64,000 bases of DNA from Burkholderiales bacterium (GCA_044360365.1 JBIKKL010000001.1:3531-67530); one strand, 5' to 3'. Shown: positions 44,063 through 56,387, counted from the stretch's first letter. Made by a program: numbers and translations. The notes: generated by a model from the sequence alone, not told the origin.

Positions 44063-44830
44063 TCAACGCGCCGCCATCCGGATCGCCCCATCCAGTCGGA
44101 TCGTCTCGCCGTTCAGCATCTGGTTCTCGACGATGTGCTTCACCAGCGCGGCATACTCGTCCGGACGACCGAGGCGCGAGGGAAACGGGATCTGGGCAGC
44201 CAGCGAATCCTTCAGCGCATCGTCGAATCCGCCCACCATCGCCGTATCGAAAATTCCCGGCGCGATGGTGACGATGCGGATGCCCGAGCGGGCGAGTTCG
44301 CGCGCGATCGGGAGGGTCATGCCGGCGATGCCGGCTTTCGACGCCGCATAGGCGGCCTGCCCGACCTGACCGTCGAACGCGGCCACCGAGGCGGTACACA
44401 CGATCACGCCGCGCTCGCCGCTTTCGCCCGGCTCGTTCTTCGCCATTGCCGCGGCAACGAGCCGGATCACGTTGAACGTCCCGATCAGGTTCACTTCGAT
44501 CACACGCCTGAAGGCATCGAGCCGATGCGGCCCGTCGCGACCAAGGACGCGCTCACCAAGCACGATGCCGGCACAATTGATCAGCCCGTCGACTCGACCG
44601 AACGTGCTCACGGCGCAGTCGACCGCAGCTTGCACCTGCGCTTCCTGAGTCACGTCGACCGGCACGAAGCGCGCGCACTCGCCGAGTTCGGTAGCGAGAG
44701 CCGTACCCTGCGTCGCATTCGTGTCGGCCAGCACGACGCTGGCGCCGGCCGCAGCAAGCGCGCGCGCCGAACCCGCGCCCAGCCCGGAGGCGCCTCCGGT
44801 CACGATGAAGGTGCTGCCCTGGAGTTTCAT
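44063..44830 (-). CDS. SDR-family 3-hydroxyacyl-CoA dehydrogenase (type-2 / 3-hydroxy-2-methylbutyryl-CoA dehydrogenase-like)
   Basis: [20 protein letters not shown], and [18 protein letters not shown]. The C-terminus is typical of the HSD10-like group. Confidence 0.9.
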
Positions 44831-44912
44831 GACGGCATCTGCTTTCCGGCTGCAAGAAACGAAGACCCGATGTTAGCCCGAAGGCAGCGAATCGTTGGTC
44901 GATTGCCGAAAA

Positions 44913-46928
44913 CTACTCCCCGCGACCCGCAAACCCCAGGGTCTTTTCGAGGCGTCGATCGAGTTTCAGGTTGTCGTTGCGGATGCGGGCGTTGCGCCGC
45001 TCGGCGGCCGCCTGCGATGCCGCCTGAACGAGCCGCAACAGCCACGGGGATGCGCGCAATGCCAGGCCCGCGTTGGCGGCGAAACGCGTGAGCCACGGCG
45101 AATTGGTGCGGAAGAGTTCATCCTCCAGCGACACGAGCATGACGCAACTGCCCGGATCCCCCTGGCGGGCGCAGCGACCGTAGAGCTGACGATCGATCCG
45201 CGCAGACTCGTGGCATTCGGTGAGGATGACGTGCAACCCGCCGCGCGCGGACACTTCGCTCGAGATCTTGATGTCCGTGCCGCGCCCGGCCATGTTCGTC
45301 GCCACGGTAACGGCGCCCGGCAGTCCAGCCCTCGCCACGATCTCGGCCTCCTCGCGATCCTGCTTGGCATTGAGCAGCAGGTGTTCGATTCCACGCTGGG
45401 CAAGCACCGCGGACAAGGCCTCGGATGCCTGGACCGAACGTGTTCCGATGAGCACCGGGCGTCGCTGCTCGATCGCGCAGCGCTGCGCCTCGTCGGCCAC
45501 CGCCTCCCACTTCTGCGCCGCCGTCGACAACAGCCTGCCTCGCCGAAAGCCGCGCCGGCTGGGTCGGTTGAGCGGCACCTTCACGACACCCAGTCGGAAG
45601 ATGGACCAGATTTCAGGCGCGACCTCCATCCCGGTGCCCGTCATGCCAGCGAGGCGCAGGTAGCGTCGGAAGAGGCGCTGATAGGTGATGCGCGCAAGCG
45701 TCTCGCGCCGCGCAGTGATCTCGACGCCCTCCTTGGTCTCGATCATCTGATGCAGCCCGCGCTCCCACGAGCGATCGGCCATGATGCGGCCGGTGAACTC
45801 GTCGACGATCTGCACCTTCCCCTCCGCGACGACATAGTGCTGATCGAGGAGGAAGAGATGGATCGCCGACAGCGCCTGTCGCAAGAGTTCTTCCCGGGTG
45901 CGCTTGGAGGTCCAGACGCCTTCCTGCTGCTCGCTCCACTCGTCGAGCCAGCGCTTGCCCGACTCGCGCAGCTCGACATAGCGCTCGCGCCGATCGATCA
46001 CGTAATGATCGCCTTCGATCATGGATCGTGCGAGCGTGAGTGCCTGCTCGCACATCTGGCCCTCCTTCTCGTCCTCACGCGACGCCGAGAGGATGAGCGG
46101 GGTGCGTGCTTCGTCGATGAACACGCTATCGGCCTCGTCGACGATGGCGAAGTGCAGCCCGCGCAGCACCACGCGATCGGCGATGCTGCGCCCGTCGCGC
46201 AAGCGCGCAAGCGCGATGTGCGCCGCACTTCCCGAGCTGCCCAGCGCAACACGATCGCGCAGGTAATCGAAGGCGACATCCTTGTTGGTGCAATAGGTCA
46301 CGTCGCAGGCGTACGCGGCGCGGCGCAGATCCGGCGCCATCTCCTGCGTCACTACGCCGACCGTGAGCCCGAGAAAACGGTAGATCGGCCCCATCGATTC
46401 GGCGTCGCGAGCCGCGAGATATTCGTTGACCGTGATGACATGCACCGGTACGCCCGCCAACGCGGCCGTGGCCGCCGGGAGTGTGGCCGTCAATGTCTTG
46501 CCCTCGCCCGTCTCCATCTCGACGAGCCGTCCCTCCAGAATGCCCCAGCCGCCCATCAGCTGCACGTCGAAATGCCGCTGACCTACGGTGCGTCCGCCGA
46601 CCTCCCGCAACAATGCGAATACTTCGCCAACCACCGGCAGATCGAAGCCGTCGCGCCGGAGCCGCCGCCGCAGATCGACCCCCAGCTCGCGCAGGCGGGC
46701 ATCGGAGATCGTACGCAATGCCGCCTCGTGCGCGGCAGCGTACGGGACGATCCGTTGCAGCCGCCGCGCCGGATTGGCGAACGTCCGAACGGCAGGCTGG
46801 AGCACGCGACTCGTCAACCAGTCGGCAATGTGATCATGCCACTTGGGTTCGTGCTCCACGCGCTCGGGATAGGCTCGCGTCGCCGACAGCTCGGCATCGG
46901 CATGCAGCACGGCAGCACTAGCCCGCAC
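44913..46928 (-). CDS. SecA-like ATPase lacking the C-terminal translocation domains
   Basis: SecA NBD1 is colinear: RHFDVQLMGGWGILEGRLVEMETGEGKTLTATLPA, VITVNEYLAARDA, VDEADSVFIDEARTPLILS. A shortened PPXD follows, then NBD2 with TNMAGRGTDIK and DRQLYGRCARQGDPGS. The protein stops about 60 aa later. The GTG start has GGAG 6 nt upstream. Confidence 0.85.
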   Translation of the reverse strand: MRASAAVLHADAELSATRAYPERVEHEPKWHDHIADWLTSRVLQPAVRTFANPARRLQRIVPYAAAHEAALRTISDARLRELGVDLRRRLRRDGFDLPVVGEVFALLREVGGRTVGQRHFDVQLMGGWGILEGRLVEMETGEGKTLTATLPAATAALAGVPVHVITVNEYLAARDAESMGPIYRFLGLTVGVVTQEMAPDLRRAAYACDVTYCTNKDVAFDYLRDRVALGSSGSAAHIALARLRDGRSIADRVVLRGLHFAIVDEADSVFIDEARTPLILSASREDEKEGQMCEQALTLARSMIEGDHYVIDRRERYVELRESGKRWLDEWSEQQEGVWTSKRTREELLRQALSAIHLFLLDQHYVVAEGKVQIVDEFTGRIMADRSWERGLHQMIETKEGVEITARRETLARITYQRLFRRYLRLAGMTGTGMEVAPEIWSIFRLGVVKVPLNRPSRRGFRRGRLLSTAAQKWEAVADEAQRCAIEQRRPVLIGTRSVQASEALSAVLAQRGIEHLLLNAKQDREEAEIVARAGLPGAVTVATNMAGRGTDIKISSEVSARGGLHVILTECHESARIDRQLYGRCARQGDPGSCVMLVSLEDELFRTNSPWLTRFAANAGLALRASPWLLRLVQAASQAAAERRNARIRNDNLKLDRRLEKTLGFAGRGE

Positions 46929-46995
46929 GCGGGTCGCTCCGAAGCAGCAAGTGCACAGGCGTCACGGTCATCCCAGCCCTCGCAGAATGCGCCGC

Positions 46996-49140
46996 TCAGA
47001 CATTGAATCGGGTCAGGAACAAGCGCCGCAAACCGCGATACCACTGCGTCCCGAGCGGTTCGGGCACGTGGTCGAAACGGACGTAGACCCGACCGCCGTA
47101 GAGGACCGTTGCAGGCGCATCGAGTTCGATCTCGAGCTGGAATACGCGCTGCATCGTCTTCGTGCCCTTGGGATCCCGCGGGTCGATGGGCACGGTACCG
47201 CCGCCCTCCGTCGACAAGGCCTTGCTGGGCAGTTCCTCGTTGCCGCCGGGAACCTGACGCACGATGCGCGCCTTGACGACATGCTCGACACGAGCGGCGG
47301 TCCGGATCTCGACTTCGTTCGTCGCCAGCCGTACGACGTCGACTTCGGCCTGCTGCACGATCACGCGCGCCCGCGGCTGCGCCGGCTCGATGACGTAGCC
47401 CACCATCTCGCCCTTGCGGAAATACCGTCCCGGCAGATCCGCCGGGTGCGGCACGGTGAACACGCCGGCCGACCGGCTACGGGCGATGAGATCGGCGCCA
47501 CGATCGACGGCGCGCTGCAGCGCGGCCAGCTCGCGGTCGAGCGCCTCCTGGGTGATCTGCGCCTGTACCCGGTCCGTGATGAAGTGATGGGCGAACTGTG
47601 CATCGAGTTCAGCCACCTTCGCCTGCGCCACCCGGATCTCGGCATCGAGCACCGGATCGATGCTCTCGATCAGGGCTTCGTCGGGCTGCACCCGGGACCC
47701 GGGTTCGACCAGATAGCGCGTGAGAAATCCATTGGCGCGGGCGCGGACCATCTGCTGCTCCGGCAGCCAGATCACGCCTTCGGTCTGGGTACGAAACGGG
47801 ACCGGCACCCAGAGAACGAATGCGACCGTGACCGCCAGTGCACCGAAACACACGCCTGCCACTCGCCGCCGATGCCGCGCCAGACGCGGACTGGTCGCCA
47901 GGTGATGCACTGTCTTGGACACGGGCACGACCGCCATGGCGATCACCGCCCAGATCGCGAGCACCACGCCGATCACGAAAAACTCGCCGGCGATGAACAG
48001 GATGATCGCGACGACGACGACGATGCGATACAGGAACGACCCGATGCCATAGAAGACGAACCACGCCTTCTCGCCCGGTGTCCCTTCGGGCTCTTCGATC
48101 TCGCGCGCTCCGAACAGGTGGCGCTCGAAAAGAAAGCCGAGGTAACGCATCGAGCGCGTCGCGAGGTTCGGAATCTCGATCAGGTCCGACAGAATGTAAT
48201 AGGCGTCGTAGCGCAGCAGCGGATTGCCATTGAACAACAGGGTGGACACCCCGGCGATCAGCATGACGTTGAAGGCCACGGCCCGCACCGTGCCCGGCTC
48301 GGCCAGCATCCAGACGAAGAACGCGATGGCCGCGAGCATCAACTCGATCATCATGCCGGCGGCGCCGACGACAGCGCGCTCGTATTTGGATTTGAAGAGC
48401 GCCGAACTGGTCGCGTCGACGTAGGGCACCGGCATGAGCACGAGCAGCATCAGGCCCATGTCGTGCACTTCACCGCCGCCGGCCTTCGCAGCGATCCCGT
48501 GCCCCAGTTCGTGAAACGCCTTCAGGAGCGGAAACAGCAGCCAGATCATCAACAGGTTGTCGACGGCGAAGACCCGATCGGCCACGCCGTGCGTGAGCTC
48601 GTCCCAGTGCGGGGGCACGAGCAGCAGCGCCGGAACCACGATGGCCAGCCAGACGAGCATGCCCTTCCAGCCCCAGAACGGCCGCACGAAGGGCAGCATC
48701 CGTTCGAGCAGTCGGTCGGGATCGATCAGGGGCACCTTGATCGCCATCGGATTGCCGATGGCCCGCTTGACTCGCGCCCGGTCCTGGCGCTGCGCGCGGT
48801 CGAAGAGTTCGGCCACGTCAGGCGACACGTCGCACTGAAGCAGGTCGGACGAGTGCAGCTGGCCCAGCAGATGAATCAGTTCGTCCTGACTCGGCGCCGA
48901 CTCGCCCAGGCGCTTGTTCGCCATTTCCCACAGTGCACCGACGCTGCGCTCGCCGTCCATGCCGTTCATGATGAGCCGGGCCGCAGGCGTGAATCGATGC
49001 GCGCGCCCCGACGCGGGATCCTGCAGGACGAACCAGACCTGGCCGCGGTAGCGATGTCGCTGCATGCGCGCATGCGTGCGCATGCGAGGCTTCAACTCGC
49101 TGACCCGATACCACGAAGCGCTCAGCAGCGGGCCGGTCAT
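46996..49140 (-). CDS. Site-2-protease-type zinc metalloprotease (peptidase M50-like) with an N-terminal PqqD/RRE-like region and a C-terminal HlyD-like periplasmic domain
   Basis: HELGH at nt 48499-48513 and a second motif NGNPLLRYDAYY (NxxPxxxxD). There are multiple TM helices, and the C-terminus combines a barrel-sandwich with a coiled coil (IRVAQAKVAELDAQ...). An alternative GTG start lies at 49209. Confidence 0.8.
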   Translation of the reverse strand: MTGPLLSASWYRVSELKPRMRTHARMQRHRYRGQVWFVLQDPASGRAHRFTPAARLIMNGMDGERSVGALWEMANKRLGESAPSQDELIHLLGQLHSSDLLQCDVSPDVAELFDRAQRQDRARVKRAIGNPMAIKVPLIDPDRLLERMLPFVRPFWGWKGMLVWLAIVVPALLLVPPHWDELTHGVADRVFAVDNLLMIWLLFPLLKAFHELGHGIAAKAGGGEVHDMGLMLLVLMPVPYVDATSSALFKSKYERAVVGAAGMMIELMLAAIAFFVWMLAEPGTVRAVAFNVMLIAGVSTLLFNGNPLLRYDAYYILSDLIEIPNLATRSMRYLGFLFERHLFGAREIEEPEGTPGEKAWFVFYGIGSFLYRIVVVVAIILFIAGEFFVIGVVLAIWAVIAMAVVPVSKTVHHLATSPRLARHRRRVAGVCFGALAVTVAFVLWVPVPFRTQTEGVIWLPEQQMVRARANGFLTRYLVEPGSRVQPDEALIESIDPVLDAEIRVAQAKVAELDAQFAHHFITDRVQAQITQEALDRELAALQRAVDRGADLIARSRSAGVFTVPHPADLPGRYFRKGEMVGYVIEPAQPRARVIVQQAEVDVVRLATNEVEIRTAARVEHVVKARIVRQVPGGNEELPSKALSTEGGGTVPIDPRDPKGTKTMQRVFQLEIELDAPATVLYGGRVYVRFDHVPEPLGTQWYRGLRRLFLTRFNV

Positions 49141-49216
49141 TGCTCGCGACAGCGCAGACGGCGGGTCGACGCGACCTTGGCGGAACCCGCGCACGCCAGG
49201 GCATGGCACACGACCA

Positions 49217-51112
49217 TCACGGCATCCAGCTCCAGAATGCGAGGCGCACCCAGTCGATGAGCTTGTGCGTCCAGATCCAGATCAGGCGCCGCTCGCCGAT
49301 GGCAACCTTGCCGACGCCTTCCATGCCGGGTCGCAGCCTTTCGCTGACAACTGCCATCTTCGCTTCGACACGGAAGTAGTTGCGGCCCTCGTCTGCCGTC
49401 GACACCGGTGTAATGCGCGCAACGGTAAAGGGCTGCCGCGCTCCCGGAATCCCGGACAGGACGAGTTCGCCCTCCTGCCCGACGGCGAGATACGTGATGT
49501 CGCGCTCGTCCACTTTCAGTATCACGCGATAGGCATCGAGCGGCGCAATCTCGAACAACACCTTGCCTTGCTCCACGGGCGTGCCGAGGAGCTGGCTCAG
49601 ATCACCGCTGACGACGATGCCGTCGAACGGTGCGCTGATGCGCGAGCGGGCGAGCTTCTCGTTGATCAGCTGCAGCTGGGCCTCGGCCTGATTGACCTGA
49701 GCACCGACGACGTTCATCGTCGGCCGATCACGAGTCGCGAGCGCCTGGCGGTACTTGCGCAGGTGCTGCTCGCGTTCCGCTTCCCAGCGGGTACGCTCCA
49801 GCAGCAGCTCCTTGTCATCGAGTCGCGCGAGCAGCGCCCCGGCTTTCACGACATCGCCTGCCCGCACGAGACTTTCAGCAATGTAGCCCTCGAAGGGCGC
49901 GACGGCTGCGCGCTGGACCTCGCCCTCCACGACGGTCTTGGCCGCCACACGATGCTCGCCATCGGCAAGACTCAAGAACAACAGCACGCCCAGCACGACC
50001 GCGGCGATCAGCTTCCAGCCGGGGTGCCGCGGCCCGAAGAAGGCACGCGTCCCGGCGACGAGCCCATCCCACGCACGACGCGGTATGCCGCGCTCGTTGT
50101 CCCGCTTCAGATCGAGGACCGGCCCAAGGAGCAACCCCAGCGTTCGCACCAGTTCGAGCGTTGGCACATCGAAGACCGCGCCACGCGTGCGTTCGAGCAT
50201 CAGGACGCCCCAATCCTCGCCGTGTGCATTCAGGGGCGTGGATACGATGGCGATGTCGCCCGCTTCCTGGGCCAGCGCCAGGTGCGAAGCACCGCTCAGC
50301 GCTTCGTCTCCGGGGGCGGGAAACACGAAGGTCGCCCCGAGATCCAGTGCTTCGTCCATGGCATCGCCGAGGCGACGCGCGAGACTGGACTTCGGATCGA
50401 ACATGGCCGTGTGCGAGATCGCGAGCACGCGGCATTCGCCATGCTTGTCCATGCCGATGCTGACGCGCTCGCATTCCAGGCGCCGAGCGATATCGTTTGC
50501 TATGGCGAGCGCCGCCGCCCTGAAGCGCTTTTCCTGAACAGCCGTTGCGACCAGCTCCGTCGCCAGCGCCAGCCGGTCGATGGCGGCCTGGCGCTGCTCG
50601 AACTCGCGCTGGCGGAAAAGATCGACCAGCCAGGCCGCCCCCCAGTGGATGAGACGCAAGGCGCGCTGCAGATCGCGACTGGCCCGGGGCGCGAGATCGA
50701 GCACCACGGCGCCATGCAGGGCGCCCGCCACTTCGATGGGATAGGCGACTTTCGCGCCGCGCAGCTCCCGAGATTCGCCCGCGTCTTCGCCCGTATCGAC
50801 CACGCCCTGCCGCTCGGTCAACGCTCGTTGGGCAGTGGGGGCAAGATGGGTCATGTCCCGACTGACGTCGGGCCAAATGGCCCCCGGGACGTAGGTATTC
50901 TCGGTATCCGAGCGGATCAGGAGCAGCGCGCCGAGCACCTGTTCGACTTGCGCGCAGAGGATGGCAAGCCAGCTCGCGTAAAACTGATCGACCGAGTTTG
51001 CCGCAACGAAGGTGCTCCAGGTCGACGCGTCGGCGTCGCCTGCGAGGTCCTGTGCGCCGGGGGCGGCACGCGCGTCCTCGAGGGTGCGCTCGATTTCCGT
51101 GGTCGATGACAT
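49217..51112 (-). CDS. GAF-GAF-TM-HlyD family membrane-fusion (periplasmic adaptor) protein
   Basis: Two GAF-like blocks in the N-terminal ~335 aa are followed by the TM helix WKLIAAVVLGVLLFLSLA. A HlyD-type lipoyl/coiled-coil/beta-barrel region comes next (VEGEVQRAAVAPFEGYI...RISAPFDGIV...). Confidence 0.8.
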   Translation of the reverse strand: MSSTTEIERTLEDARAAPGAQDLAGDADASTWSTFVAANSVDQFYASWLAILCAQVEQVLGALLLIRSDTENTYVPGAIWPDVSRDMTHLAPTAQRALTERQGVVDTGEDAGESRELRGAKVAYPIEVAGALHGAVVLDLAPRASRDLQRALRLIHWGAAWLVDLFRQREFEQRQAAIDRLALATELVATAVQEKRFRAAALAIANDIARRLECERVSIGMDKHGECRVLAISHTAMFDPKSSLARRLGDAMDEALDLGATFVFPAPGDEALSGASHLALAQEAGDIAIVSTPLNAHGEDWGVLMLERTRGAVFDVPTLELVRTLGLLLGPVLDLKRDNERGIPRRAWDGLVAGTRAFFGPRHPGWKLIAAVVLGVLLFLSLADGEHRVAAKTVVEGEVQRAAVAPFEGYIAESLVRAGDVVKAGALLARLDDKELLLERTRWEAEREQHLRKYRQALATRDRPTMNVVGAQVNQAEAQLQLINEKLARSRISAPFDGIVVSGDLSQLLGTPVEQGKVLFEIAPLDAYRVILKVDERDITYLAVGQEGELVLSGIPGARQPFTVARITPVSTADEGRNYFRVEAKMAVVSERLRPGMEGVGKVAIGERRLIWIWTHKLIDWVRLAFWSWMP

Positions 51113-55481: not shown

Positions 55482-56387
55482 TTATCGGGGGCGGAACTGG
55501 CGTTGGTCCTCGTAGTAGGCGGGACACTCGCTGTCCCTGCACACGCCGGGAATGCCGAGGACGGGCACGGGGGCAAAGACCTTCGGGCGGGGATACCACG
55601 ATCGCACCGCGAAGCGGTGCGCCACGATATCGTCCGCGCGAGCCAATTGCTCGGCCAGCGGCGCGGCGGCGAGCAGTTCCGGTTCGACTTCGACCAGCGC
55701 TGCGCGTGCGCAGAGACCGAAGAACGGCGCACGCAGCGCATCGTACAAGCCATGGCCGAAGACGAAGAACCGCAGTTGTCGCTTCACGTCCTTGCGACGA
55801 TGCCAGAAGAGGTCCGCCCAGCGTCTTGCGCGCAGCAGTTCGAGCAACTCCGGATCCGCACCGAGGACGATCATGCCGCTCTCGTCGAACTGCGTTGCCG
55901 CGTCGCGCAGGGTGCCGCGTGGCGCACCGGGGAGCTGGGCAGCGATCTCCTCGACATGCAAGCGATTGAGGGCTGCCTTCGTCCGCGGAAACACTGTCCA
56001 GACAAGCGCATTGAAGAAGTCGTGCCAGCTGCCGGATCGCGTCGACACCTCCCCGCGATCGTGGATGCGCTGCTCGTACTTCGCGTCCCCGGCATCCGGC
56101 ATTGCGAACCGGATCGGCAGACCCGCGGCGTTCACGGGTCTGGACGTTCGGCGCGCAGCCCACGCATCGAGCGCGGGCGCATCGATCCGGTCCCGTGCTG
56201 CGAGATCTTCGAGCGATGACGACAGCGGCTCGTACAACGGCCGCCGCGCGAGCAACGACAGCACCTCGCCTGCAATGACGTCGCAAGGTGGCGCGATGAC
56301 GGCACAACGAGAAGAGCCGGGCAAGATCGAGATTACCCATCCAGGACGATGGTCGGCGCGCAGTGCGCGGGAAGCACCCAAGCCCAC
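55482..56387 (-). CDS. DUF3025-like hypothetical protein
   Basis: SWHDFFNALVWTVFPRTKAALN and FVFGHGLYD match my memory of the DUF3025 family. The start (GTG 56387) is uncertain. Confidence 0.6.
   Translation of the reverse strand: MGLGASRALRADHRPGWVISILPGSSRCAVIAPPCDVIAGEVLSLLARRPLYEPLSSSLEDLAARDRIDAPALDAWAARRTSRPVNAAGLPIRFAMPDAGDAKYEQRIHDRGEVSTRSGSWHDFFNALVWTVFPRTKAALNRLHVEEIAAQLPGAPRGTLRDAATQFDESGMIVLGADPELLELLRARRWADLFWHRRKDVKRQLRFFVFGHGLYDALRAPFFGLCARAALVEVEPELLAAAPLAEQLARADDIVAHRFAVRSWYPRPKVFAPVPVLGIPGVCRDSECPAYYEDQRQFRPR

Follow-up and report, generated by a model that had tools for sequence, protein, structure and literature searches.

The gene studied here encodes, as we can say with high confidence, a fusion of three parts: a PqqD-type RiPP recognition element (RRE) at approximately residues 18–101, an intact site-2 (M50) protease, and a C-terminal periplasmic adaptor. 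Taken as a whole, the evidence is best read as describing a machine that cleaves and exports its substrate, in which the RRE would act as the cytoplasmic reader of the cargo, and we assign this reading a probability of roughly 0.55. The RRE call itself is not new, as RefSeq names relatives after PqqD (a 58%-identical homologue is labelled “PqqD family peptide modification chaperone”); modestly novel is the placement of an RRE in a widespread secretion-like module.

Gene and Domain Layout

The enclosing open reading frame occupies 46996..49209 on the minus strand and offers a GTG start at 49209 (737 aa) as well as the ATG at 49140. Because homologues open with M-x-x-P-L-L-S at the latter position and are 713–717 aa long, the ATG was taken as the true start and the GTG was dropped. 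The segment to which the initial annotation had drawn attention, residues 33–100, was reproduced exactly: Minus-strand positions 48841–49044 translate to GQVWFVLQDPASGRAHRFTPAARLIMNGMDGERSVGALWEMANKRLGESAPSQDELIHLLGQLHSSDL; a plus-strand translation of these positions is meaningless, the gene being on the minus strand. The boundaries proposed for the domain were less fortunate, since the segment does lie inside the domain but its start, G33, sits in the turn between β1 and β2. We place the domain at approximately residues 18–101 because the PqqD alignments open at P18 and because of the limits of the secondary structure elements in the AlphaFold2 (AF2) model. Further upstream, a short conserved motif is found (Table 1), with an invariant W10 and with S7, R12, and V13 each conserved in at least 90% of a set of 61 diverse family members sharing 33–55% identity with the protein; AF2 predicts a short helix over residues 8–13. 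The helix linking the RRE to the membrane domain is weakly conserved. Promoter and terminator scans gave no signal above background.

Table 1. Positions of the gene, its domains and motifs, and its two partner genes within the window (the whole 64-kb stretch of DNA that was analysed).
Feature	Coordinates	Strand	Details or basis
RRE / M50 site-2-protease / periplasmic-adaptor fusion gene	46996..49140	-	714 aa; ATG at 49140; stop at 46996-46998
Conserved S-x-x-W-Y-R-V motif, residues 7-13, N-terminal of the RRE	49102..49122	-	conservation
PqqD/RRE-like domain, residues 18-101, encloses 48841-49044	48838..49089	-	profiles, AF2, Foldseek
Linker helix, residues 109-129, RRE to membrane domain	48754..48816	-	AF2 (107-127 / 109-129)
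M50 (site-2-protease) membrane domain, residues 141-444	47809..48720	-	Pfam, NCBIfam, AF2 and hydropathy
HELGH zinc-binding / catalytic motif, residues 210-214	48499..48513	-	conservation
NGNPLLRYDAY, residues 304-314, NxxPxxxxD(G) motif with third zinc ligand (presumed)	48199..48231	-	conservation
Periplasmic adaptor (HlyD/MexA-like), residues 450-714	46999..47793	-	Foldseek, Pfam, AF2
Upstream partner, cytoplasmic GAF and periplasmic HlyD-type adaptor	49217..51112	-	631 aa; Pfam
Downstream partner, SecA-like ATPase	44913..46928	-	671 aa; Pfam

Sequence Evidence for the RRE

The claim of a PqqD/RRE-type N-terminus holds on the combined evidence of profiles, predicted fold, and collinear homology with the RRE-fused peptidase family of the daptides. 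Taken alone, the protein matches PF05402 with 15.5 bits (E 0.022, profile positions 3–67 of 67) and TIGR03859 with 16.9 bits (E 0.0042, profile positions 1–80 of 81), and thereby stays under the curated cut-offs of both models, which are 23.4 and 46 bits, respectively. Its relatives match more clearly: 41 of the 61 individually hit PF05402 at E ≤0.01, with a best E of 6.3e-8, and 13 hit TIGR03859 at E ≤0.001, while single matches to the RRE models lasso-PqqD, ScmD, and ApyI also occur; for some homologues, a PF05402 match had already been precomputed. With scores below threshold and matching relatives, the domain is therefore a divergent relative of PqqD and not a member that passes the family threshold. 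In a profile search of the PDB with 32 N-terminal domains, PqqD (3g2b_A) was found at E 0.0056 over residues 12–94 of 95, being the sole match below E 0.9, and hhalign against the PqqD fragment of 3g2b gave 75% probability and E 2.5e-5 over 80 aligned columns at 28% identity. The alignments extend over the entire PqqD model and take in the N-terminal P-x-L-R strand as well as the DG-x-(R/K)-(S/T) motif.

The marginal E values of the single sequence would also suit a generic winged-helix similarity that arose by chance and implies no evolutionary or functional relation to PqqD or RREs. We consider this explanation highly improbable and largely refuted, because diverged relatives match PF05402 independently of each other, PqqD is the only credible match by sequence in the PDB, its model is covered along its whole length, and the homology to a published RRE–protease fusion is collinear.

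Predicted Fold and Conservation of the RRE

The order of β-strands followed by three helices, which had been read from the sequence pattern, returns in the AF2 model: β1 (residues 25–31), β2 (34–40), and β3 (47–50) are followed by α1 (52–59), α2 (67–81), and α3 (85–97), which gives the three-stranded antiparallel sheet and the three helices of the winged helix-turn-helix RRE fold. The region is predicted to be ordered, with pLDDT values of 76–93 over the domain; the model of the isolated domain reaches 82.5, that of the full-length protein 88.8. Structural comparison by Foldseek recovered leader-bound lasso peptide RREs, namely 6jx3_B (probability 0.99, TM 0.67) and 5v1v_A (TM 0.72; both TM values normalised to the target), and also the RRE-containing proteins MibB and CteB. 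With the 128-residue model, which included the helices 8–13 and 107–127 that do not belong to the RRE, nothing was found at E ≤0.001, and PqqD structures were absent from the top 50. As the first-ranked matches are GdmN and Rv2067c, both non-RRE proteins, the structural case consists of moderate RRE matches that are not top-ranked, and these unrelated enzymes at the head of the list are the second observation in keeping with a chance similarity. Of the profile and structure comparisons proposed at the outset, the first recovered PqqD, and the second gave the moderate RRE matches.

Among the 61 family members, the RRE is the second best conserved region behind the catalytic core, with a top-residue frequency of 0.60 versus 0.48 for the adaptor domain. 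Conservation of this extent across phyla is unusually high for a leader reader and would suit a conserved protein partner: The RRE fold might be used for docking or gating, either by binding the SecA-like ATPase, the cytoplasmic GAF region of the upstream protein, or DUF3467, or by controlling, much like the PDZ and CBS domains of other site-2 proteases, what reaches the active site. Regulatory soluble domains are indeed carried by other families of these proteases, and the additional conserved motif at residues 7–13 in front of the RRE fits such a function as well. Within the RRE, however, β3 and α3 are conserved most, and these are the canonical leader-binding elements of RREs. By analogy, we infer that the predicted RRE would bind a leader along β3/α3. 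Moreover, MpaP, the closest characterised relative, uses its fused RRE for leader-dependent cleavage, and lasso RRE–protease pairs act alike, which is why we regard a pure docking or gating role as unlikely.

Protease, Adaptor, and Topology

The membrane domain matches Pfam Peptidase_M50 at E 7e-6 with 26.0–26.3 bits, just below the cut-off of 27.2, and 57 of the 61 relatives match this model. According to the AF2 model and hydropathy, it consists of seven transmembrane (TM) helices and a re-entrant β-hairpin at residues 228–241. H210, E211, and H214 are invariant among the 61 members, as are N304, N306, P307, L308, D312, and Y314. The protein thus displays the features of a site-2 protease, an HExxH motif within a TM helix and an NxxPxxxxDG-type motif; from general knowledge of these proteases we take the NxxPxxxxD motif at residues 304–312 to be the site of the third zinc ligand.

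The daptide_HExxH model NF041824, which represents MpaP, is matched with 152.9 bits and E 1.3e-44 over residues 25–406 (profile positions 6–365 of 379), the equivalog cut-off being 300 bits. All 61 relatives match it from residue ~25 through the protease, with E values down to 2.5e-52. Judged by these profile scores, the protein is homologous to MpaP and not its equivalog. The YydH/LiaK model NF058609 is matched at E 3e-8 with 33.6 bits (cut-off 225) over residues 193–323, and 60 of the 61 relatives match it as well.

The C-terminal part is predicted to comprise the lipoyl, α-hairpin, and β-barrel elements of a periplasmic adaptor, or membrane fusion protein: Foldseek of the full-length model returned MexA, MacA, AcrA, and EmrA at E ~1e-10, HlyD_3 is matched by 52 of the 61 relatives, and the α-hairpin is predicted at residues 496–549, after the seventh TM helix. 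As the full-length model contains seven TM helices, the RRE and the HELGH motif at the end of TM2 would face the cytoplasm and the adaptor the periplasm, which agrees with the topology initially suggested. The accompanying idea of a hand-off of the cleaved peptide to the HlyD-like part is too loosely put, given that the usual task of periplasmic adaptors is to make the connection to a TolC-type channel and not to deal with the cargo.

The Operon and the Wider Module

The gene is flanked on the same strand by two partners (Table 1). The upstream one combines a GAF domain (Pfam E 7.8e-10) with an adaptor domain (HlyD_3, E 4.3e-19), and its gene lies directly upstream of the RRE–M50–adaptor gene in nearly all of the 81 loci compared. 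The downstream one is a SecA-like ATPase (SecA_DEAD, E 6e-102; SecA_PP_bind, E 5e-26) with the DEAD motor, the preprotein cross-linking domain, and the second nucleotide-binding domain; the canonical C-terminal part of SecA is missing, and the protein scores under every SecA/SecA2 equivalog cut-off. Its gene is found downstream of the RRE–M50–adaptor gene in 62 of the 70 loci with sufficient flank. That the partners are nearly always co-encoded would again fit a docking function of the RRE; against it, the RRE is kept in loci without an adjacent SecA-like gene.

The module is widespread, with thousands of homologues in Proteobacteria, Nitrospirota, Myxococcota, and other phyla. No ABC transporter was found in it, neither here nor in the related loci, so that it does not correspond to canonical type I secretion. 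In 34 of 58 other loci, the module includes a fourth gene, which encodes a short HlyD/biotin-lipoyl protein and belongs after the SecA-like gene. It is absent from the window (no tblastn match), where an SDR gene follows the SecA-like gene instead, and it is likewise lacking in a syntenic relative of 95% identity. The SDR gene was considered as a daptide-type oxidoreductase and rejected: It is not conserved beside the module elsewhere and stands in a fatty-acid/PHA context, for which reason its position is taken as coincidence. Of the 81 loci, 9 have TolC-type (OEP) genes, 10 genes for giant RTX proteins, and 11 SapC in the vicinity of the module, and DUF3467 occurs as an occasional neighbour. 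Within the 64-kb window, none of the genes for DUF3467, SapC, TolC, and RTX proteins was found (by tblastn in the case of the first three).

Two further ideas on these neighbours were abandoned. The assignment of DUF3467 as a SecB-like chaperone was supported neither by a PDB profile search nor by a permissive Pfam scan, and a C-terminal secretion signal on the giant proteins was discarded since their tails are not conserved. The one feature that these proteins have in common there is a zincin HExxGHxxGxxH motif located ~150 aa before the C-terminus.

Search for Cargo and RiPP Genes

The initial annotation had recommended a search for short open reading frames with conserved leaders. Performed on the 81 module loci by clustering frames of at least 30 aa and setting shadow frames aside, it identified DUF3467 as the sole recurrent small gene; a conserved precursor frame did not emerge beside the module in the 80 other genomes, nor does the 64-kb window contain a precursor-like gene. 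This lack of a conserved precursor nearby is a further point in keeping with docking or gating. Radical-SAM, YcaO, lanthipeptide, aminotransferase, and methyltransferase enzymes are neither found near the operon nor recurrent in the 80 other loci, and the same holds for pqq genes, so that the locus does not resemble a PQQ pathway or, with precursor and modifying enzymes not co-located, a RiPP biosynthetic gene cluster. The operon is instead flanked by housekeeping genes (PhaC, MBL hydrolase, acyl-CoA dehydrogenase, SDR, enoyl-CoA hydratase, PDH). The daptide-type motif ELExMEAP yielded no strict and two loose matches in 1.4 Mb, none of them in a short frame.

These results bear on the possibility that the protein is only the dedicated leader peptidase and exporter of a modified peptide from a classical RiPP pathway, with the small precursor and the enzymes that modify it encoded at another place in the genome. 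PqqD/RRE domains are characteristic of RiPP pathways, the best NCBIfam matches described above are to RiPP leader peptidases, and the RefSeq name speaks of a peptide modification chaperone. We nevertheless deem this possibility improbable: RiPP clusters are normally compact, whereas maturase genes and a daptide-like precursor were not detected in the searches above, both NCBIfam scores fall far under their equivalog cut-offs, and the constant partners are a SecA-like translocation motor and adaptors, sometimes joined by giant RTX proteins. The original argument for a peptide substrate is to be widened: The SecA-like/GAF-adaptor module, together with its occasional neighbours (giant RTX proteins, SapC, TolC, and DUF3467), points to protein export at least as much as to a small RiPP.

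Proposed Mechanism

Within the preferred reading of the RRE as a cargo reader, the most likely mechanism, to which we would give about even odds, is leader capture followed by cleavage and export driven by the SecA-like ATPase. The RRE would capture the short leader of a ribosomally made cargo, either a peptide or an unfolded protein, in the cytoplasm; by analogy with solved RRE–leader complexes, binding would occur by strand addition along β3 against α3. The RRE would then present the cargo to the HELGH site at the cytoplasmic end of TM2, where the M50 protease would clip the leader. Finally, the SecA-like motor would push the cargo out via an envelope-spanning assembly in which the adaptor domain of the protease itself and the GAF-adaptor protein would be joined by a TolC-type channel from another locus. 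It is conceivable, and we propose it only tentatively, that this constitutes a distinct envelope-spanning secretion system, widespread in Gram-negatives and built from an RRE-guided site-2 protease, a SecA-like motor, and a hetero-oligomeric adaptor/TolC conduit. In some genomes, such a system might carry the giant RTX/zincin proteins encoded next to it, and DUF3467 or SapC might assist.

[quoted passage not shown]

Since 2015, the module has been known only as a cluster of a “secondary SecA plus type-I-secretion-like proteins”. With a conserved RRE and intact protease motifs, the former pore candidate becomes the centre of a testable mechanism of leader recognition, cleavage, and export, for which the isolated 100-residue domain may serve as bait for the cargo. 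RREs, the known range of which covers RiPP tailoring enzymes and the daptide peptidase of Gram-positives, would thereby also be part of an adaptor-fused, envelope-spanning machine of Gram-negatives.

Comparison with Known Systems

The nearest counterpart is MpaP, an RRE-dependent leader peptidase in which the RRE is fused N-terminally to a site-2 protease (PMC10028931). The protein described here matches it collinearly and has the same architecture of N-terminal RRE and intramembrane M50 protease; it differs in its score, which is about half the equivalog cut-off, and in the C-terminal periplasmic adaptor, which MpaP lacks. Their genomic settings differ as well: Daptide clusters occur in Actinomycetota and Bacillota and comprise ELExMEAP...Thr precursors together with genes for an oxidoreductase, an aminotransferase, and a methyltransferase, all of which were sought here without success, whereas the partners of the present family are GAF-adaptor and SecA-like proteins.

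PqqD (PF05402/TIGR03859; 3g2b) serves PQQ biosynthesis as a peptide chaperone and is the founding member of the RRE fold. The domain shares with it the P-x-L-R strand, the DG-x-R-S/T motif, the leucine pattern of α3, and the order of β3 and α3. PqqD, however, is a free-standing protein of ~90 aa that passes PqqA to the radical-SAM enzyme PqqE, whereas the present domain forms one polypeptide with a membrane protease. Among compact structural matches, those to the lasso B1/B2 pairs (TbiB1, 5v1v; B1 of 6jx3) rank best, with TM values of 0.67–0.72 and probabilities of 0.95–0.99, at an identity of 10–16% and Foldseek E values of 0.1–0.4. In lasso systems, too, an RRE brings the leader to a protease (PMC10885120); B2 is a soluble, transglutaminase-like cysteine protease, as opposed to the membrane zinc protease here. 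Another RiPP pathway, that of the epipeptides, has the M50 intramembrane protease EpeP/YydH, which is thought to both cleave and export its peptide (PMC10885120). Its core is homologous, but the match is limited to this catalytic core, and neither an RRE nor an adaptor is present in the aligned part.

The module as such was described bioinformatically by Kamneva, Poudel and Ward in 2015 as an ABC-transporter-less, type I secretion-like system with SecA_DEAD as candidate ATPase (PMC4452313). The window contains its GAF-HlyD, Peptidase_M50-HlyD, and secondary SecA_DEAD genes, adjacent on one strand and in the same order, without the fourth gene; this order also holds in the related loci, and the phyla are the same as in that study. 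There, the M50 protein is regarded chiefly as a pore candidate, and the text does not mention PqqD/RRE, cargo, or DUF3467, SapC, and RTX neighbours. Among publications on SapC/SecA/HlyD, RRE/M50/HlyD, and DUF3467, our literature search brought up none that deals with an RRE in the module; preprints on giant genes and on Chlorochromatium concern other systems.

The peptidase-containing ABC exporters of bacteriocin-type type I secretion, composed of a C39-ABC protein, an HlyD-type adaptor, and TolC, are a functional analogy only, which lies in cytoplasmic leader recognition and cleavage coupled to ATP-driven export via an adaptor/TolC conduit. The present module has neither an ABC nor a C39 component: In the proposed parallel, the RRE reader and the M50 protease would stand in for the C39 peptidase, and the SecA-like ATPase for the ABC ATPase.

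Gene Assignment and Operon Layout

When translated from the minus strand, the segment for which the initial annotation had proposed a PqqD/RRE-like signature yields exactly the residues quoted there; the plus-strand reading of 48841-49044 gives nonsense and was rejected. The segment lies within a minus-strand ORF (46996..49209), whose start we place at an internal ATG because all homologues begin with M-x-x-P-L-L-S and measure 713-717 aa. The resulting protein, referred to as the target, is a fusion of a PqqD/RRE domain, an M50 site-2 protease (S2P) and a periplasmic adaptor, and is encoded between two same-strand partners. The downstream partner has a DEAD motor, a preprotein cross-linking domain and a second nucleotide-binding domain. 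It aligns to model positions ~15-605 of 789 only, so it lacks the C-terminal part of canonical SecA, and it reaches none of the SecA/SecA2 equivalog cut-offs. In the upstream partner, residues 1 to ~200, which precede the GAF domain (203-330), matched no Pfam family, and the extreme N-terminus (~1-27) shows low conservation across homologues. Long antisense ORFs over the three real genes are high-GC shadow ORFs; such ORFs also gave rise to numerous false 'conserved' clusters when the loci were compared.

The window and a 95%-identical syntenic relative (L084) carry the three-gene core set only, amid housekeeping genes. The short HlyD/biotin-lipoyl adaptor, usually the fourth gene, is absent from the window, and L084 has the same three-gene form. 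A DUF3025 gene (E 2.7e-70), whose arrangement is kept in this relative, appears unrelated to the RRE finding.

Features of the operon and its surroundings in window coordinates
Feature	Position	Strand	Remark
Initially marked segment	48841-49044	-	within the target
Target gene	46996..49140	-	ATG 49140, 714 aa; residue numbering as in the initial annotation
RRE domain	48838..49089	-	residues ~18-101
Motif S-x-x-W-Y-R-V...L-x-P-x-L	49102-49122	-	residues 7-13, on to residue 24; before the RRE
Upstream partner	49217..51112	-	631 aa; GAF domain and HlyD-type adaptor
Downstream partner	44913..46928	-	SecA-like ATPase, 671 aa
SDR gene	44063-44913		directly after the SecA-like gene
DUF3025 gene	55482-56387	-	between acyl-CoA dehydrogenase and gamma-glutamyltranspeptidase (GGT) genes
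Neighbours, one side			PhaC, MBL hydrolase, acyl-CoA dehydrogenase, DUF3025, GGT
Neighbours, other side			SDR, enoyl-CoA hydratase, SPFH protein, PDH E1/E2
Antisense shadow ORFs	46951-49260, 44895-47006, 49064-51109	+	769, 703, 681 aa

Evidence for a PqqD-Type RRE

Taken alone, the target stays below threshold with both Pfam PqqD (15.5 bits against a cut-off of 23.4; E 0.022) and TIGR03859 (E 0.0042), in alignments extending over nearly the full length of either model. In the family, 61 diverse full-length relatives, 33-55% identical to the target, were aligned and each was scanned singly. PF05402 was matched by 41 of them at E<=0.01 (best 6.3e-8) and the PQQ PqqD model by 13 at E<=0.001, and single members matched the lasso-PqqD, ScmD and ApyI RRE models, which removes the doubt raised by the target's own scores. 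When a profile built from 32 N-terminal domains was run against the full set of PDB sequences, Xanthomonas PqqD (3g2b) was the sole match below E 0.9 (E 0.0056, residues 12-94 of 95), and hhalign of the N-terminal-domain profile with 3g2b gave E 2.5e-5 at 28% identity over 80 columns.

AlphaFold2 modeling of the domain alignment (pLDDT 82.5) predicted the elements β25-31, β34-40, β47-50, α52-59, α67-81 and α85-97, and the full-length model (pLDDT 88.8) has the same order. The succession β1-β2-β3-α1-α2-α3 is the canonical RRE topology. Foldseek support is weaker than the sequence evidence: the domain model found no PDB structure at E<=0.001, and the top-ranked matches, GdmN and Rv2067c, are not RREs. 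Compact RRE matches were obtained with lasso B1 proteins, namely 6jx3_B (probability 0.99, TM 0.67 normalised to the PDB structure) and 5v1v_A (TM 0.72), both solved with the leader peptide bound, and the RRE-bearing enzymes MibB and CteB were also matched. With a probability of roughly 0.85, we consider the N-terminus of the target to be a PqqD-type RRE domain. The signature seen in the initial annotation is confirmed, and its reading as to fold and homology is supported; the domain extends slightly beyond the segment marked there.

In conservation the RRE ranks second among the regions of the target, behind the catalytic core (top-residue frequency 0.60 vs 0.68 in the core and 0.48 in the adaptor). 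Its most conserved elements are β3 and α3, by which the leader is held in RRE complexes of known structure. The S-x-x-W-Y-R-V motif, a predicted short helix outside the PqqD model, equals the RRE in conservation, with W10 invariant in the 61 relatives.

Protease, Membrane and Adaptor Anatomy

HELGH (210-214) and N304-x-x-P307-x-x-x-x-D312, the latter being the S2P motif with the third zinc ligand, are invariant across the 61 relatives; by these residues, the protease is not a degenerate pore. The target model contains 7 TM helices and a re-entrant hairpin, with a positively charged RHRRR before the last TM helix. Its last 265 residues match periplasmic adaptors in structure, namely MexA, MacA, AcrA and EmrA (E ~1e-10). 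The modeled N-in/C-out topology places the RRE on the same side as the active site, at the cytoplasmic end of TM2, and the adaptor in the periplasm.

The Module across Genomes

Kamneva, Poudel & Ward have described this operon as the "secondary SecA_DEAD" module, which consists of GAF-HlyD, Peptidase_M50-HlyD, SecA_DEAD, short HlyD and sometimes OEP, and for which these authors proposed a type-I-secretion-like machine without ABC transporter, its "biological role completely unknown" (PMC4452313). PqqD, leaders, RTX, SapC and DUF3467 are mentioned nowhere in that paper (PMC4452313), and we found no later publication tying an RRE to the module.

We compared 80 loci from GTDB species genomes and one metagenome contig, covering Alpha-, Beta-, Gamma- and Deltaproteobacteria, Nitrospirota, Myxococcota and one Flavobacteriales MAG. 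Complete genomes with the module include Bradyrhizobium sp. KBS0727 and M. extorquens AM1 (META1p2399-2402). The GAF-adaptor gene lies directly 5' of the target gene in nearly every locus with flank, the SecA-like gene lies 3' in 62 of 70, and a short HlyD gene follows the latter in 34/58. Among the less constant neighbours, TolC-type OEP occurs in 9 loci, SapC in 11 and giant RTX proteins in 10. Eight of the 70 loci with enough flank have no complete SecA-like ORF after the target gene (L057, L068, L069, L070, L073, L075, L077, L024): wherever a gene could be seen in its place, it codes for a longer HlyD-like protein (284-497 aa); in L024 a partial SecA-like match remains by tblastn. The target protein of such loci keeps its RRE.

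A DUF3467 protein of ~110 aa (PF11950, E 1e-22) is the first gene product in 24/64 loci, encoded directly 5' of, and in the same direction as, the GAF-adaptor gene (e.g. L061 6878-7177, L011 7638-7979, L033 7667-8035); its gene is absent from the window. It combines a variable charged N-terminus with the conserved core YANVCNV...REEV.L.FG...RI.LSP.AAKRL, has no relatives in PDB or other Pfam families, and we found no functional paper on DUF3467. The giant proteins with calcium-binding RTX repeats adjoin the module in L001, L002, L010, L015, L032, L033, L036, L040, L046 and L053, with >2,200 aa visible (the L001 pair measures 9,216 and 5,988 aa). Their loci often contain a SapC-family gene and have no ABC transporter; a zincin-like HExxGHxxGxxH is common to them ~150 aa before the C-terminus, and their tails show no conservation. 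The module may have these proteins as its cargo.

The window contains neither a RiPP maturase nor a precursor-like short ORF nor a daptide-type leader motif, and none was found to recur across the other loci. In the main rival explanation, the domain would keep the RRE fold but serve for docking a conserved partner or for gating; this would fit the lack of a nearby precursor as well as the high cross-phylum conservation of the RRE. Leader binding and cleavage by the target are a plausible proposal and consistent with the predicted topology; that the substrate is a peptide encoded elsewhere, as the initial annotation had it, is an assumption.

Proposed Mechanism and Relation to Known Systems

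Our proposal builds on the RRE fold and homology, on an S2P with intact motifs, on the topology with its adaptor domain and on the conservation of the three-gene operon. In the cytoplasm, the RRE would capture a ribosomally made cargo by its recognition segment and offer it to the HELGH site, where the leader would be clipped; the SecA-like motor would then expel the cargo through a conduit formed by the adaptor-bearing proteins (two here, three in other loci) together with a TolC-type channel whose gene lies elsewhere. A protein cargo is favoured by the SecA-like motor and by the giant RTX neighbours of some loci, a peptide by the RiPP-peptidase homology.

As a domain call, the RRE is ordinary because it is already in RefSeq, where a 58%-identical Bradyrhizobium homologue is named "PqqD family peptide modification chaperone", and because an RRE-S2P fusion has been published: the daptide protease MpaP carries its RRE N-terminally fused to the site-2 protease and removes the leader in an RRE-dependent manner (PMC10028931). 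The NCBIfam model of this daptide intramembrane metalloprotease matches 61/61 relatives in a collinear alignment that takes in both RRE and protease, and the target itself at E 1.3e-44 over residues 25-406 (152.9 bits vs a cut-off of 300). With the module published as well, the finding was largely known in pieces; its moderate value lies in the RRE as a clue to a very widespread, uncharacterised secretion-like module. Precedents for the proposed mechanism are MpaP as an RRE-dependent S2P, lasso B1/B2 as a protease activated by an RRE, and EpeP as an M50 enzyme to which both cleavage and export are ascribed.
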